A stretch of DNA of 64,000 bases. It comes from Mya arenaria (taxonomy: Eukaryota). Made by a program: the position numbers and the translations under genes. The notes beneath the pieces are model-generated. The model saw only the letters and a list, made by a program, of their open reading frames with translations, was not told where the DNA came from and searched no databases. Where the stretch lies: positions 48,545,355 to 48,609,354 of the forward strand of contig NC_069133.1 of the NCBI RefSeq assembly GCF_026914265.1, read 5' to 3'. This document shows positions 1-46,099 of this stretch, in pieces (position 1 is the stretch's first letter; each line of letters opens with the position of its first letter).

Positions 1-984
1 AGTCTTTGCATCAATACAAAATATATTTACTGATAATGCAATGATCGTTTATTCCCATCAAATGCTGTCTGTATTTGAAAGTCATATTGTTATCTTAACG
101 AATGAAATATAGAACATGCAATTATAACCTTGAATATACTAAAACGAACAGTGCTAAAACTGTCACAGCACCCAATATTAACTAAATGGCAATATTTAGA
201 ACAAAGGGACATAGCTCTAAATGTCAATAACTATCTCATTGGCGGATCTATGAAATAAAATAAAATGGGTCAGAACATAGGGGTACGAAATGGATCATTT
301 TTAAAAGAATTTCGACGTGTTAAGAGTGAGGTGGTGGCTTACATCACTTGTGAATAATAGGGATTAATATGCTAGTTAACACTGTACAAACTTTCAGTTC
401 TCTAAGATTATGTAGGATAACGGATGCATGAGCTGTGCAGTAACGAAAAAAGGAACTCAATGTAATAAGTACATTTTCAATTAACGTTTTATATCATTCT
501 GCGTGATTTTAATGTAATATCGTATTGTAAGGACACGTTTTGTTCAGGTATTTACACTAACAAAAAAGGTGACGAAATCTACTCCAATAAATATTAGCTC
601 ATACGCCTGTGCAATCATGTTATCATGTGTCCTAAAGTAAACTTCAACCGACCAAAGGACTGTAATCTATTCATAAAGCTGTTCAACCCATATTTGTAGT
701 AATCGAAGTACTCTAACAAGGATGTAAAACATATTATCAGTTATTTTACTATTTTATTATTTATTAGAAAAAAACAGTATTTCATTATTAATGGAATAAG
801 TCTTAACTTGTTATAGAAATATCGGATTTTATCTGTTTTCGGTTTCACTTATTGTATGTAATCACGTGGCTAATGAAGGAGTGTTTTATATAGGGTATAA
901 CTTATTTATCATAGTGGCTTTACCCTTTGGATACATATCAGTTACGAAAATGGTCGTATAAACGCAGTAAGTTGATGGAAGTTT

Positions 985-1740
985 TTTATTATTATTATTA
1001 TTATCATTATTATTATTATTAGTAGTAGTAGTAGTAGTAGTAGTAGTAGTAGTAGTAGTAGTAGTAGTAGTAGTAGTAGTAGTAGTAGTAGTAGTAGTAG
1101 TAGTAGTAGTAGTAGTAGTAGTTGTATATAAAAATAATAATAAAATTAATAATAATTATGATTATTATTATTATTATTATTATTATTATTATTATTATTA
1201 TTATTATTATTATTATTATTATTATATTTTTATTAACAGTAGCAGTAGCAGTAGTAGTAGTAGTAGTAGTAGTAGTAGTAGTAGTAGTAGTAGTAGTAGT
1301 AGTAGTAGTAGTAGAAGTAGTAGAAGAAGTTGTAGTAATAGTAGTAAGAATAGTAGTAGTAGTAGTAGTAGTAGTGGTGGTGGTGGTGGTGGTGGTAGTG
1401 GTAGTAGTAGTAGTAGTAGTAGTAGTAGTAGTAGTAGTAGTAGTAGTAGTAGTAGTAGTAGTAGTAGTAGTAGTAGTAGTAGTAGTAGTAGAAGTAGTAG
1501 TAGTAGTAGTAGTAGTTGTAGTAGTAGTAGGAGGAGGAGGAGGAGGAGGAGGAGGAGGAGAAGTGATAGTGGTGGTAGTAGTGGTAGTGGTGGCGGTGGT
1601 GGTAGTAGCGGTAATATCAGTGGTAGTAGCGGAAGTAGGAGGAGCAGTAGTAGTAGTACAAGTAGTAGTAGAAATGGAAGTGGTAGTGGTAGTGGTAGTT
1701 GTTGTTGTAGTAGTAGTAGTATTAGTAGAAGTGGTCGTAG
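985..1740. repeat. Compound trinucleotide microsatellite, (ATT)n / (AGT)n / (GGT)n / (GGA)n, about 750 bp
   Basis: Seen directly. It lies ~830 bp upstream of the gene A start codon. The homologous position in block B (30142-30218) has only ~25 ATT units. Confidence 0.95.
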
Positions 1741-2572
1741 TATGCACTATATTGACTGTACACCGCATGTCTATTTTAGTTCTAAATCGTATGTTGTAAA
1801 ACAATACTTAGTCAACTATAAGAAGAAGAGAAAAGGTTATCAAGTGTATACTATTTCCTTGAGAGACAGTTGTTCCATACTAGAATACACTCTTTTTATA
1901 TGTATATGTTCGGTTTATTTATTTCAGGTTTTTGTTATTTGATATTGAGAGGTGAGATTCAAGCTTAAACCTTCCTTCTCGCTTAGGTCATTATTTATGA
2001 TATAACTTTATCATTGCGCAATCATCTATTATCTAATCTTACGCACAATCAGTATTAAAACGCGACCACAAATAAACACAGCCTTCCAAAACACATATGT
2101 TTAATGATCATGTCATCTTCTTCTTCGTATACCTTTTTCCTTATTAGCTTTTGCTTCTGGATATATGTATGACCGAAAATATAACATGTTCAGCTGATGG
2201 TATAAAAGTGGCTAATTCTTTGGTCAAAGTTAGCCGAAAATTTAAGTGATCCAATGAGTTTCATTAACCAATCAAATCCTTTAAATGTGCAAACTAAGCG
2301 AAATATATTTCGTGGATAACTTAACCACGTTTTATATAAATGGCTGCAGTAGTCCATTGACCAAATAGTCGTCTTCATTTGTAAGGAAGATCACTTTGAA
2401 AGAAGTAAAGTATATAATAATTTTAATTATTGTATATATAATATGATTGTAATTTGTCCTTAAGATCGTGAAAAGAAGCCAGTTGGCAAATAAAATAGTA
2501 TAAACTAGTGTGATTCCGTTTAGTAGTGTACGGTGTTCTAAAAGCATTCGTCAATTTTTCAGGTTGACATGA

Positions 2573-42614: not shown

Positions 42615-42913
42615 GTAGGTGTTCCAGTTTTATCTTTTCTTAAAACTAAGCATTTGCCGGTGTTTCAAATATAGGTAAAATGTTTGGCCGATTTCGCTTT
42701 TGTGACCACATTTTAATTACATTAGATTGAACCAGATCAAGAGTTTATTTCCTTTTCATAACAACTTTATATTGTAATATATAGTTTGTTTCACATTCTC
42801 ACGACCGTCCCTGTAAAATTCCGATAACCCCTTCTTTCCCAATTAGTTCATCTGTATAAAATACTTGTATTTCTATATACTATTGTTTATCAATTACTTC
42901 TTTTAAAACATAG

Positions 42914-43809
42914 ACGAGCGTGATCAAAACGCTGCTTTGAATGATACTACAGACGAACATGACCAAAACGCTGTCTTGAATGATTCTATGGATGAACAGG
43001 AGCCAAACGCTGTTTTCAATGATTATACTGACGAACGTGGCCAAAACGCTGTCTTGAATGATACTACGGTCGAACGTGAGCCAAACGCTGTCTTCAACGA
43101 TTCTACGGACGAACGTGGCCAAAACACTGTCTTGAATGATACTACGGTCGAACGTGAGCCAAACGCTGTCTTCAACGATTCTACGGACGAACGTGGCCGA
43201 AACGCTGTCTTGAATGATACTACGGTCGAACGTGAGCCAAACGCTGTTTTCAAAGATACTACGGACGAATGTGGCCAAAACGCTGTCTTGAATGATACTA
43301 CGGTCGAACGTGAGCCAAACGCTGTTTTCAAAGATACTACAGACGAACGTGGCCGAAACGCTGTCTTGAATGATTCTACGGTCGAGCGTGAGCCAAACGC
43401 TGTTTTCAATGATAGTACAGACGAACGTGGCCGAAGCGCTGTCTTGAATGATTCTACGGTCGAGCGTGAGCCAAACGCTGTTTTAAATGATACTACAGAC
43501 GAACGTGGCCGAAACGCTGTCTTGAATGAATCTACGGTCGAGCGTGAGCCAAACGCTGTTTTAAATGATACTACAGACGAACGTTGCCGAAGCGCTGTCT
43601 TGAATGATTGTACGGTCGTGCGTGAGCCAAACGCTGTATTCAATGATTCTACGGACGAACGTGGCCCAAACGCTGTCTTGAATGATTCTACGGATGAGCT
43701 AGGCATTAACGCTGTCTCGAATGACACTACGGGCGATGGTGACCGAAACGCTGTCTTTATTGATATTGAGACGAACAGCAATATCGATGTTGAAGGTGAC
43801 AGCTTGTAG
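42914..43809 (+). CDS. Gene B last coding exon: expanded acidic repeat tail (~10.5 copies of a 26-aa / 78-nt unit, NDTTVEREPNAVF-NDSTDERGRNAVL), stop at 43807-43809
   Basis: CATAG acceptor. ORF 42937..43809. The gene A homologue, 10507-10730, has about one unit. The gene A C-terminal residues (...SRTDETQF) are out of frame or lie after the stop in gene B. Confidence 0.7.
42937..43750 (+). repeat. Coding minisatellite: 78-nt unit made of two 39-nt half-units, about 10.5 copies
   Basis: Seen directly. The antisense ORFs 43023..43781(-) and 42880..43278(-) are artefacts of the repeat. Confidence 0.9.
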
Positions 43810-46099
43810 CAGCGGTGTCAGTACTAGCAGCATAGTCAGTACTAGTAGCATAGCTACTACATCAAGGACAGATGAAACTCAAATGTAACACTACTTATTA
43901 AGTTTGCATTTGTTGTGTATGAGTTCTTAAGTTACAAAAGTTACTGTCGCAGGTTTCGACACTAGCCGTGTCCCGGGACCCAAAGGACAGCATTTTTTTT
44001 GGCGAGACTCAAGAGCCTTCAAGTCAGATGTCCTAATTGTGCCATATTGTTTTAGCAGAAAAATTTAGATAGAAACCCAAAATATATATTAAGTGCAATC
44101 AGAAATCAACAGTCGGATTCTTGGAAAGTAGTATTGGTGTCGAACATTGTGCTGTGCAGCAAATACACGAGTGGTCAAACACTTCTTAGATTATAATTCA
44201 AAGAAGCTGCAAATGTTGTAAATGATGATGGCAAGAATTGTTTCCATGTACAAAAATGAATTCGTCATAATGGATATATGCAATTTTTTAAAGTGGTCGT
44301 CATCTGCTGATTGGCTAATCATGAAGAAGCATGTGAACTATTAGCACACAATATAGTTTAATTATAATAAACGGAATTTGGACAATTCTTGAAGAAGGCA
44401 ACATTTAAACGCAGCTGTACGTTATTCCATTACAGCCATGCAACCTCAGTGATGTGTATGTGCCCATCGTCTTTGAGTGTATCAAAATGGGTCAGTCGTG
44501 GGTATGTTGGCATGAGTTTATGAAACTTGCTCAAACTGGGTAATGTTTCCTACTTTTAAGAACAAACTTCAAACATATATTAATTTGAACAAAATGTTTT
44601 GGGCATACTAAGTATTGTTTTGTGACATTTTAAAATACATGTTAACAGCTGTTATTTAAATTGTTAATGATGTTTGACTATTATTGCGATCATCTATCAT
44701 CTTGTTCGCATGGTCAGACCCTACAACACATGAGCGAGTCCCTGTAAATATGTTTGTGTATCTGCTTATGCCTAATCAATTGCTTTCTGCAGTCAAACTG
44801 CGTTTATTAAATGAATTCACAATGGTATTTTTATATCAGATATTGCTAAACATGTGCAATTACTGGCGAGCATTTGTAGTATATGTGTATGTGGTGTTCA
44901 TGTGTTTTTGTTTATATTTATCGTTTGGGCCCTTACCTTATGCCTCTAAAGTGGGTTTATTTTTTTTAATTTTCAACTACTGACATTGTCACATCAGTCT
45001 TCGTTGTATAATTGTACGCATATCATTTCAGCTGTTATAGTAGCGTCTGTATTAAGATATAAGTATACCATTGTGTAATTTAACTTCACATTCAACATTA
45101 TCCATCATATTGCTTCAGCTCAAAACAAATAATTATATCAAATTGTACAGATAATTCATCTTTAGAACTTGTCTTCATGCATGTTTATATGAGTGTATAC
45201 ATACAACTTATTGAAAATTATACTATGGCTGTTAAGTTTAGGGTTAAAATAGCTTTAACATAGAAAGAGTATGTTTAAACTTTTGTCAAGAAATTCTTAG
45301 TGTTGAAAGAATAACTCAAATTAATTTTGAGCATAGAGAACTAGGTATAACACCATCAGGGACTAGAAGAGTTGTAAATGTGATGTGGTATTGGTTCATC
45401 AGTTTAGAATATAATCATATCAAATAAGTTAAACAGTTTATACAGCCTTACAGATATTCATGTACAAGACATCCGAAATAATCAAATTTAAGGCCATCCT
45501 AATCTTTATGACTTTTAATATGACTATATGTTATGTTGTTTTTGTGATAAACTTTTATTCTGGCATCATGCATAACATACATTTTACAATATCATATATT
45601 TTATATCAATAAAAAATAAGTTTAGAGGTGTCTGTTATATAGATATTACTCCAATATTGATATTGGTATATGTTGCACATGAGATGGAAATGTTTGTTTT
45701 TCGTTTAGTTACCTAAGGAAAAAATAAAGTTTTGTAAAAAAAGGGGCAAACATGTTGTTTTTTTAAGTCAAATAAGAAAATAAAAATCCAATAAAGTAAG
45801 AGATGTAAGTAAAATAATAAAACATGTAATAAAACATGAAAGGTTACCTTGAAAAATTATTTCAATTTATATTGATTTGGTTCCATTTTAGGTCATGTAG
45901 CTGTATTTTGCCCTTAGATTCTGCCAAACATCTCTCTTTTTTGTTTTCTTTGTTTGAGATATATGACAAAGCTTTCAAAAGCTGGAATATCGTTTATAAG
46001 TTTACATTTATGAATATAAAATTTTGATAATAGGAAAATAAAATTGATAAGCATCACTCTCGGAGTCTGTTTCTCTATAATTCCAAAAGAGACATTTTT

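Follow-up and report, generated by a model that had tools for sequence, protein, structure and literature searches.

Tandem gene families such as the globin and MHC clusters are known to undergo gene conversion or unequal crossing-over, and the death receptors of the TNF receptor superfamily (Fas, TNFR1, DR3, p75NTR and NRADD) join a cysteine-rich ectodomain to one cytoplasmic death domain in a type I single-pass protein. In clams and oysters, tandem duplication has been reported as the main route of gene family expansion (PMC8905726, PMC8917759, PMC10967218), and among 16 genomes compared, that of Mya arenaria holds the most local paralogue clusters, 3,747 (bioRxiv 10.1101/2024.05.23.594666). 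Here we show that a death-domain receptor gene of this clam has an old tandem duplicate that lies about 30 kb downstream of it in the window (the whole stretch of DNA analysed, 64,000 nucleotides) and comprises introns and flanks as well.

An earlier, sequence-only reading of this DNA had proposed comparing the window with itself. Self-BLASTN with a chained rerun revealed a single collinear plus-strand chain, leading from 21-12542 (block A) to 28134-45442 (block B), and the offset between the blocks rose from 28,113 bp to about 33,500 bp, in agreement with the period of 28-33 kb first noticed by eye. The HSPs ranged from 64 to 86% identity with E-values down to 1e-138, the longest good ones reaching 79-80% at best, and the similarity is far above chance. 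Read directly from the sequence, positions 1-22 pair with 28050-28072 in B; because block A already matches B at its first letters, it is cut by the window edge, as had been suspected. Thus, block A occupies 1..12542 and block B 28050..45442, both on the plus strand, and B is about 4.9 kb longer from B-specific insertions. The chief source of the jump in offset is extra DNA in B intron 3 (33636..37389), an intron of 3.9 kb vs 0.5 kb in A. The spacer between the blocks (12543..28049) matched only its own tandem arrays and had no counterpart downstream of B within the window; it may be part of a larger repeat unit extending leftwards beyond the window. The duplication had been described as spanning all of 1-45440, an extent that has to be cut back to some 12.5 kb of duplicated DNA in A and 17.4 kb in B.

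Homology beyond the exons, claimed from inspection alone, was borne out by a noncoding alignment of 5,225 columns at 76.0% identity, which covers 9 of 9 shared introns together with about 1.3 kb of flank on the 5′ side and about 1.0 kb on the 3′ side. At the shared intron positions the splice sites are homologous and the intron DNA can be aligned. The two copies therefore show what defines a tandem gene duplication at the DNA level, namely a common strand, common intron positions, and homologous introns and flanks. A retrocopy is ruled out by the conserved introns and flanks, the synonymous divergence (dS 0.37) and the copy-specific structural changes. A segmental duplication in the strict sense is commonly taken to require identity of 90% or higher over a length of 1 kb or greater, which the alignable noncoding DNA, at 76%, does not reach; the phrase “true segmental duplication” is right in that genomic DNA was duplicated, but the strict term does not apply to what is an older tandem duplication.

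Gene A (2573..10730, plus strand) is M. arenaria LOC128211945, located by the sole exon chain whose translation equals the protein P0002 (586 aa). Its 11 coding exons (2573-2617, 3017-3278, 3731-4081, 4578-4659, 5831-5916, 7197-7292, 8470-8574, 8915-9031, 9296-9412, 9943-10218 and 10507-10730) are separated by introns that are all GT-AG. Exon 2 (3017..3278) begins with a variable N-terminal part and continues from about 3100 with a conserved cysteine-rich core; exon 3 (3731..4081) holds the main cysteine-rich part of the ectodomain, with 76% amino-acid identity to B, and the exon at 9943..10218 encodes the death domain. A tandem duplication of 390 bp specific to A (8735..9508) turned exon 8 into exons 8 and 9. 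Its two copies (8735-9125 and 9125-9508) are 87.8% identical by self-BLASTN, and both are present in P0002, with a single copy in B and in a third paralogue.

Gene B (32155..43809, plus strand), delimited by exon-by-exon alignment to A, comprises 10 coding exons (32155-32199, 32693-32945, 33157-33507, 37393-37474, 38829-38914, 39698-39805, 41645-41749, 41937-42014, 42330-42614 and 42914-43809), which form an open frame of 762 aa with canonical sequence at 18 of 18 splice sites. Exon 2 (32693..32945) is 9 nt shorter than in A and in frame, exon 3 (33157..33507) aligns to A with an open frame, and the death-domain exon lies at 42330..42614. In the last exon, TRF detected a B-specific, in-frame array of a 78-bp unit (42915..43764, 10.9 copies), by which an acidic repeat of 26 aa is expanded. 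A conserved C-terminal tail (SSGVSTSS...TDETQM) is encoded at 43793..43888, in the +1 frame only and behind the stop codon at 43807-43809. The C-termini of A (...TDETQF) and of the third paralogue (...AETQL) correspond to it.

The products of A and B each have a 22-cysteine ectodomain, a predicted transmembrane helix and a death domain, and are predicted to be single-pass type I membrane proteins, consisting of a signal peptide, an ectodomain of about 230 aa, a Ser/Thr-rich stalk, the transmembrane helix, the death domain and an acidic repeat tail. A hydropathy scan placed an internal hydrophobic segment before the death domain in each protein (residues 291-309 in A, 284-302 in B and 292-310 in the third copy), and of the three only A had an N-terminal hydrophobic stretch above threshold. 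Both death domains exceeded the curated cut-off of Pfam Death (PF00531; 22.6 bits), with 41.5 bits for A (E = 1.5e-10) and 25.6 bits for B (E = 1.4e-5); the best solved relative was the death domain of FADD for A (E = 3e-5), and those of CRADD and RIPK1 for B. An AlphaFold2 model, made for A, has six helices in residues 430-522 (block-mean pLDDT 74-94 over about 430-520), and the top Foldseek matches of this region were the death domains of FADD, RIPK1, RAIDD, ankyrin and TNFR1 (target TM-scores 0.56-0.80, probability 0.99-1.00), so that the six-helix death-domain fold is predicted for A. No Pfam family was found in exons 2-3 of either gene at E ≤ 0.1, a family profile search found no solved relative of the ectodomain among PDB sequences, and the ectodomain of A was modelled with pLDDT below 50. 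Database searches found no family members outside bivalves, and the members found are named “uncharacterized” or “hypothetical”, except for one weakly matching Mercenaria protein named “twitchin-like”. Judging from domain order alone, these proteins should act in a death-receptor-like manner: the ectodomain would bind something extracellular, and in the cytoplasm the death domain would recruit adaptors of the death-domain type.

Divergence between A and B is uneven, as had been noted from the sequence, but its neutral component is roughly uniform along the copies and the unevenness sits in dN. We found dS to be about 0.37 overall and 0.33-0.50 in most exons, each exon's value resting on few sites (mostly 17-69 synonymous sites), and the noncoding JC distance to be 0.17-0.36, a lower bound from the alignable half of the block only. 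Since neutral sites give one age along the copies, the contrast between domains in protein identity measures selection, not history. The exon-2 core is 90% identical in amino acids (dN 0.047, dS 0.18), the N-terminal part of exon 2 is 40% identical (dN 0.43, dS 0.58), and the death-domain exon is 49% identical (dN 0.39); the figures first estimated were roughly right, although about 95% for the core was too high. Uniform divergence across exons and introns, which the sequence-only reading had set against its own interpretation, was seen in part: dS and noncoding divergence are roughly uniform, whereas dN differs 8-fold between the death domain and the exon-2 core.

Consistent with this, dN/dS was 0.30 in exon 3 and 0.35 over the ectodomain, the latter significantly below 1 (P = 4e-7). 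In the cytoplasmic part it was 1.01, and in the death domain 1.18, values that do not depart from 1 (P = 0.63); the contrast between ectodomain and cytoplasmic part was significant (Fisher P = 5e-10). When unconstrained evolution to the observed divergence was simulated, the probability that no stop codon arose was 0.005 for the death-domain exon and 5e-5 for exons 7-10. As both frames are open, the change points to diversification or relaxed constraint on working genes, not to decay. The earlier suggestion of diversifying selection or relaxed constraint on the signalling module therefore fits, with a pairwise dN/dS near 1 being compatible with either.

The expectation that further copies exist was also correct, and the cluster has at least three members. 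The third, LOC128211946 (P0001), lies outside the window on the same 70-Mb chromosome, and its consecutive gene number suggests that it adjoins the window. Compared as a protein only, it is 93% identical to A in exon 3 and 86% identical to B in the death domain. Across exon 3 and the N-terminal part of exon 2, 36 of 40 informative sites unite it with A, whereas the death domain (36 of 39 sites) and exon 1 (4 of 5) unite it with B; over all informative sites the ratio of A-like to B-like states is 39:6 in exons 2-3 and 21:60 elsewhere (Fisher P = 4e-11). When ectodomain states were polarised by eight more distant family members, 8 derived states were shared by A and the third copy, 1 by A and B, and none by B and the third copy. 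In the death domain, B and the third copy are without a Trp that FADD and CRADD have at the aligned position (LIELRN in B and the third copy vs LREWRN, LRIWKN and IRWRQ). Because these segments group in conflicting ways, we conclude from the protein sequences that paralogues of this cluster have exchanged segments.

Exchange of this kind invites the explanation that A and B themselves became mosaic by partial gene conversion, with recently homogenised tracts such as the exon-2 core in an older background. The core does have the lowest dS, 0.18 against about 0.37 overall, and near A 7999-9499 the noncoding DNA is modestly more similar than average, at 84% compared with 76% (P = 0.005 by permutation for a 400-column window). 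However, the dip in dS does not reach significance (P = 0.11 by Fisher's test and 0.10 by a binomial test), none of the windows of 100 or 200 noncoding columns is exceptional, and the longest perfect match of A to B spans 30 bp (P = 0.29). High identity stops at the exon-2 donor site, beyond which intron 2 is poorly alignable, so that selection on coding sequence fits better than a conversion tract; in addition, the big contrast between domains lies in dN, not dS. Neither the dS nor the noncoding-window tests found a clear conversion tract between A and B in the window. We regard this explanation as quite improbable: of the conversion proposed earlier, exchange among cluster paralogues holds, as the mosaic third copy indicates, and conversion between A and B is not demonstrated by the present comparison (P about 0.1 for the dS dip). 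Joining of two haplotypes of one locus in tandem, which had been named as a possible artefact, is a known assembly error, and bivalve genomes are highly heterozygous. The two blocks nevertheless mismatch at 24% of alignable noncoding sites, only about half of the block is alignable, dS is 0.37 and the amino-acid difference 35%, the exon numbers are 11 in A and 10 in B, and 15.5 kb of unrelated spacer separates them. These differences are far beyond allelic divergence, and leave such an artefact virtually no chance.

As a further explanation, B could be a young pseudogene, in which case the uneven divergence would mostly reflect decay of B beside a functional A. Database searches returned A and the third copy and no protein matching B. 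At family-conserved ectodomain positions B has 15 unique derived replacements, among them the family-invariant P159, Y135 and K209, whereas A has 5 of this kind and the third copy has 1. In B the first 39 nt of exon 8 are missing, the frameshift in the last exon removes the conserved tail beside the large repeat expansion, and the Pfam score of the death domain is the lower of the two. On the other hand, all 10 exons of B are open with every splice site canonical, upstream of the frameshift all length differences from A in coding sequence are multiples of three, and 22 of 22 ectodomain cysteines are retained. The ectodomain is under constraint, and an open frame over exons 7-10 is improbable without selection. 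Furthermore, since the annotated third copy shares 86% identity with B in the death domain, most of the difference between A and B in this domain is not B-specific decay. We therefore consider decay of B unlikely, if less so than conversion.

The history that we consider probable is one old tandem duplication of equal neutral age throughout, followed by domain-specific constraint on working, receptor-like genes and by segment exchange in the cluster. In a single event the complete gene, together with every intron and with flanking DNA on both its promoter side and its 3′ side, would have been copied in the same orientation to a site about 30 kb further downstream. The cysteine-rich core would then have stayed under purifying selection, while the first 28 or so residues of exon 2, the transmembrane and juxtamembrane exons and the death domain would have changed at about the neutral rate. 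Changes private to one copy are the exon duplication of A and, in B, the expanded repeat, the shorter exon 8 and the tail moved out of frame; the cluster members, at least three in number, have exchanged segments.

More tentatively, we propose as a possibility, and not the likelier one, that these genes represent a new bivalve-restricted family of single-pass receptors, in which a conserved 22-cysteine ectodomain is combined with interchangeable death-fold modules, and duplication, neutral-rate drift of the modules and segment swapping diversify the receptors. The cytoplasmic module in that case would be a death domain in Mya and a CARD in both Dreissena and Mercenaria, with none that can be recognised in other members. 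If this is true, the cluster shows receptor diversification, in which a given ligand specificity becomes coupled to a different downstream adaptor; should the proteins serve as receptors in innate immunity or cell death, it would be unusual for a membrane receptor to carry a CARD on its cytoplasmic side. Such a family could bear on cell-death and immune signalling in clams.

The duplication itself is ordinary for bivalves and a common pattern in clam genomes; alone it changes little, since the case is a textbook one and clusters of this kind abound in the genome. Its value is that of a clean worked example of domain-wise constraint after duplication, and it draws attention to an apparently intact paralogue to which the database search returned no matching protein, to a cluster with exchange between paralogues and to a receptor family seen in bivalves only, in which the cytoplasmic module alternates between death domain and CARD. 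Unlike the known bivalve expansions, this family is described in none of the literature that we searched. It also differs from the TNF receptor superfamily in that no TNFR_c6 repeat (PF00020) was found in exons 2-3 of A or B and in that its members were found only in bivalves. The likeness to that superfamily lies in the predicted type I single-pass topology, the cysteine-rich ectodomain and the one cytoplasmic death domain, whose nearest solved relatives are FADD, RIPK1, CRADD, NRADD and TNFR1. In contrast to the globin and MHC cases, exchange is seen here at the protein level only and involves a copy outside the window; as in those tandem families, segments group differently, the third copy joining A in the ectodomain and B in the death domain. 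Finally, the locus resembles the tandem expansions of TNF, C1q-domain proteins, IAP, caspases and HSP70 in bivalves, in which local same-strand duplication of whole genes is followed by fast divergence and domain reshuffling.

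Comparison of the window with itself confirmed the duplication described in the sequence-only reading: a single collinear chain on the + strand joins A 21-12542 to B 28134-45442, with HSPs of 64-86% identity and E-values down to 1e-138. As that reading had claimed, the block carrying gene A runs off the left edge of the window, since bases 1-22 already match B 28050-28072, a stretch of B with an (AT)n array on its immediate right; at the other end, the homology ends at A 12542 / B 45442. The offset between the blocks is 28,113 bp at the left and grows to about 33,500 bp because B carries extra DNA: intron 3 (33.6-37.4 kb) contributes about 3.4 kb of it, the surroundings of a 31-bp array (28901-29445) about 1 kb, and smaller pieces at other places the remainder. 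Self-comparison of the window found no second copy of the spacer (12543-28049), and a search of the window with protein A returned two loci only, blocks A and B. A transposable-element origin of the similarity was rejected because the match tracks an entire multi-exon gene in order, and a retrocopy was rejected because A and B share introns. A haplotig join of the two blocks was rejected on divergence. The event is an ordinary old tandem duplication; the term "segmental duplication" has a usual identity threshold, above 76%, and the A-B identity of 76% falls under it. Immune and cell-death genes are known to have expanded locally in bivalve genomes (PMC8905726; PMC8917759; PMC10967218), and among 16 compared genomes that of Mya arenaria had the highest number of local paralogue clusters (bioRxiv 10.1101/2024.05.23.594666).

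Block A is an exact match to P0002 (LOC128211945, 586 aa), and a brute-force exon search of this block gave a single 11-exon chain with GT-AG introns that translates to the same protein. Gene B was obtained by mapping the A exons onto block B; it has 10 exons, canonical splice sites throughout and a 762-aa open frame. When the block-B exons, roughly concatenated, served as the query, 13 Mya proteins were retrieved, and no database protein matching block B was found in this way. Both genes encode the same order of parts. A hydrophobic N-terminus, which passed the threshold of a hydropathy scan in A only, is followed by an ectodomain in which 22 cysteines are conserved; next come a stalk rich in Ser and Thr, a single transmembrane helix, the death domain and a tail of acidic repeat. 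The death domain was recognized as Pfam PF00531 (E = 1.5e-10 in A, 1.4e-5 in B), and an AlphaFold2 model of A showed a confident six-helix bundle at this position. Its nearest solved relatives are the death domains of FADD, RIPK1, RAIDD and TNFR1 for A, and those of CRADD and RIPK1 for B. Ectodomain pLDDT was <50 almost throughout (AlphaFold2, 12-sequence family alignment), and the fold search with the A model was meaningful for death-domain matches only. The ectodomain of A and B had no Pfam match, and no relative of it appeared in a profile search of PDB sequences.

We then compared coding divergence by domain (Nei-Gojobori, 457 aligned codons). Amino acid identity was 90% in the exon-2 core (dN 0.047, dN/dS 0.26) and 76% in exon 3 (dN 0.13, dN/dS 0.30), and fell to 40% in the N-terminal part of exon 2 (dN 0.43, dN/dS 0.75) and 49% in the death-domain exon (dN 0.39, dN/dS 1.18). 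Pooled, the ectodomain (exons 2-5) showed 76% identity, dN 0.135 and dN/dS 0.35 vs 51%, 0.364 and 1.01 for cytoplasmic exons 7-10, a significant difference in dN (P = 5e-10). dN is lower than dS in the ectodomain (P = 4e-7), and in the death domain the two rates are statistically indistinguishable (P = 0.63). The uneven divergence noticed from the sequence alone is therefore real, and the contrast sits in replacement changes. Overall dS was 0.37, with most exons at 0.33-0.50; it was 0.18 in exon 1 and in the exon-2 core, and the lower value of the core was not significant (P about 0.1). The noncoding JC distance was 0.17-0.36 per segment with a mean of 0.29; these are minimum values, since the count covers the alignable half alone. 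A and B look equally old along their length. Taken together, these results support the interpretation offered by the earlier reading in a refined form, in which the A-B mosaic is explained by selection and not by history.

Each copy also carries changes of its own. Exon 8 occurs twice in A as the result of a 390-bp tandem duplication (8735-9125 / 9125-9508, 87.8% identity); in B it is single and shorter (78 nt). The last exon of B contains a 78-bp array of 10.9 copies that expands an acidic 26-aa repeat, and a net +1 frame change in this exon leads to a stop at 43807-43809. The tail of B (...TDETQM, 43793-43888) is therefore readable only out of frame; A (...TDETQF) and the third copy, the paralogue LOC128211946 (...AETQL), both keep this conserved tail in frame. 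The DNA of all three paralogues encodes a terminal E-T-Q-F/L/M (10507-10730 in A; 43793-43888 in B, behind the stop via the frameshift), a putative class I PDZ-binding C-terminus.

The frameshifted tail, together with the lack of a database protein matching the rough concatenate of B exons and 15 unique replacements in B at family-conserved ectodomain positions (5 in A, 1 in the third copy), keeps alive the rival reading that B is a young pseudogene. We consider this unlikely. Upstream of the last-exon frameshift, all coding length differences between A and B are multiples of three; all splice sites are intact and all cysteines retained in both, which indicates that selection has kept acting on A and B alike. 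Furthermore, when unconstrained evolution was simulated up to the observed divergence, the probability that a stop codon never arose was low, both for the death-domain exon (P = 0.005) and for exons 7-10 (P = 5e-5).

For partial gene conversion, also suggested from the sequence alone, the evidence between A and B is weak, and exchange between paralogues is seen through the third copy only. When A is compared with B, the stretch of high identity covering the exon-2 core stops at the donor site, no perfect run exceeds 30 bp (P = 0.29), and no noncoding window of 100 or 200 columns is exceptional; the sole standout is a 400-column noncoding window at A 7999-9499 (84% vs 76%, P = 0.005). The third copy (P0001), which lies on the same 70-Mb chromosome outside the window, was compared at the protein level. 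At informative sites it resembles A over B by 13 to 2 in the N-terminal part of exon 2 and by 23 to 2 in exon 3, and B over A by 4 to 1 in exon 1 and by 36 to 3 in the death domain; its affinities are mixed in exons 5-8 (exons 2-3 vs the rest, Fisher P = 4e-11). When ectodomain states were polarized against eight distant members of the family, 8 derived states were shared by A and the third copy, 0 by B and the third copy and 1 by A and B, so the grouping of A with the third copy is not merely a product of faster change in B. The death domain of LOC128207648 (P0014) was too diverged for phmmer alignment as outgroup, and the solved FADD and CRADD death domains took its place at a few positions; the Trp of FADD and CRADD is absent at the aligned position from both B and the third copy. 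Judged from these protein alignments, exchange between paralogues within the cluster is clear.

Several repeats and neighboring features were observed in the window. The 5' flank of gene A holds a very long 3-bp TAG-type array (1020-1742, about 241 copies), whose only kin near copy B is one short stretch inside intron 3 (37285-37387). Intron 4 holds a 48-bp minisatellite in A (about 4988-5522) as well as in B (38229-38778), which makes it older than the duplication; the B array, with 11.6 copies and 84% matches, is the better preserved of the two. The 5' flank of gene B contains a 440-bp inverted repeat of 72% identity (30368-30808 and 31479-31908) that may represent the ends of an inserted element, and self-comparison showed no counterpart upstream of A. 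In the spacer, an 18-bp GC-rich array (25236-26168, about 52 copies, 73% matches) may be a minisatellite or part of a gene as an exon; it has one open frame of 318 aa, encoding a proline-rich PVPGPT-type repeat, with no Pfam match. Block B begins about 0.7 kb downstream of an isolated acidic 121-aa ORF (26970-27332, + strand), also without a Pfam match. From about 0.5 kb past the right end of block B, a LINE-like retroelement with several frame breaks occupies 45917-49244 on the - strand (endonuclease, 48693-49244; reverse transcriptase, 47139-47966; zf-RVT, 46108-46701), and the + strand carries another reverse-transcriptase fragment (50875-51240). Long - strand ORFs at 52347-53588 (414 aa) and 55386-55727 (114 aa) look like exons of a neighboring gene; they had no Pfam or PDB sequence match and may resemble HSPA12-type proteins. 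A search for tRNA, SINE and other RNA genes found none.

A family profile built from 12 Mya members and searched against 1.84 billion representative proteins gave only 49 matches. Ten were looked up, and all nine that carried a species name were from bivalves (Mya, Dreissena, Mactra, Mercenaria and Potamilus); eight of these are named "uncharacterized" or "hypothetical", and the other, a weak Mercenaria match, "twitchin-like". Mya members occur on at least five chromosome-sized contigs, with a large cluster on a 69.35-Mb one. The module behind the transmembrane helix varies across the family: the window cluster and LOC128207648 have a death domain, Dreissena polymorpha LOC127873039 (P0017, E = 1.7e-9) and Mercenaria mercenaria LOC128551964 (P0025, E = 9.4e-7) have a CARD, and other members have no recognizable module there. 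The two CARD proteins share the ectodomain and the single transmembrane helix, with the CARD where the Mya copies have the death domain; a cytoplasmic CARD in a membrane receptor is an unusual architecture. Literature searches yielded general accounts of how bivalve gene families expand and nothing describing this receptor family. Tentatively, these proteins may form a family of bivalve receptors that has so far gone undescribed and whose death-fold modules can be swapped. As neither the Pfam scan nor the PDB profile search detected a TNFR repeat, the A/B protein is not assigned to the TNF receptor superfamily; on the basis of domain order only, its closest functional likeness is a death receptor.
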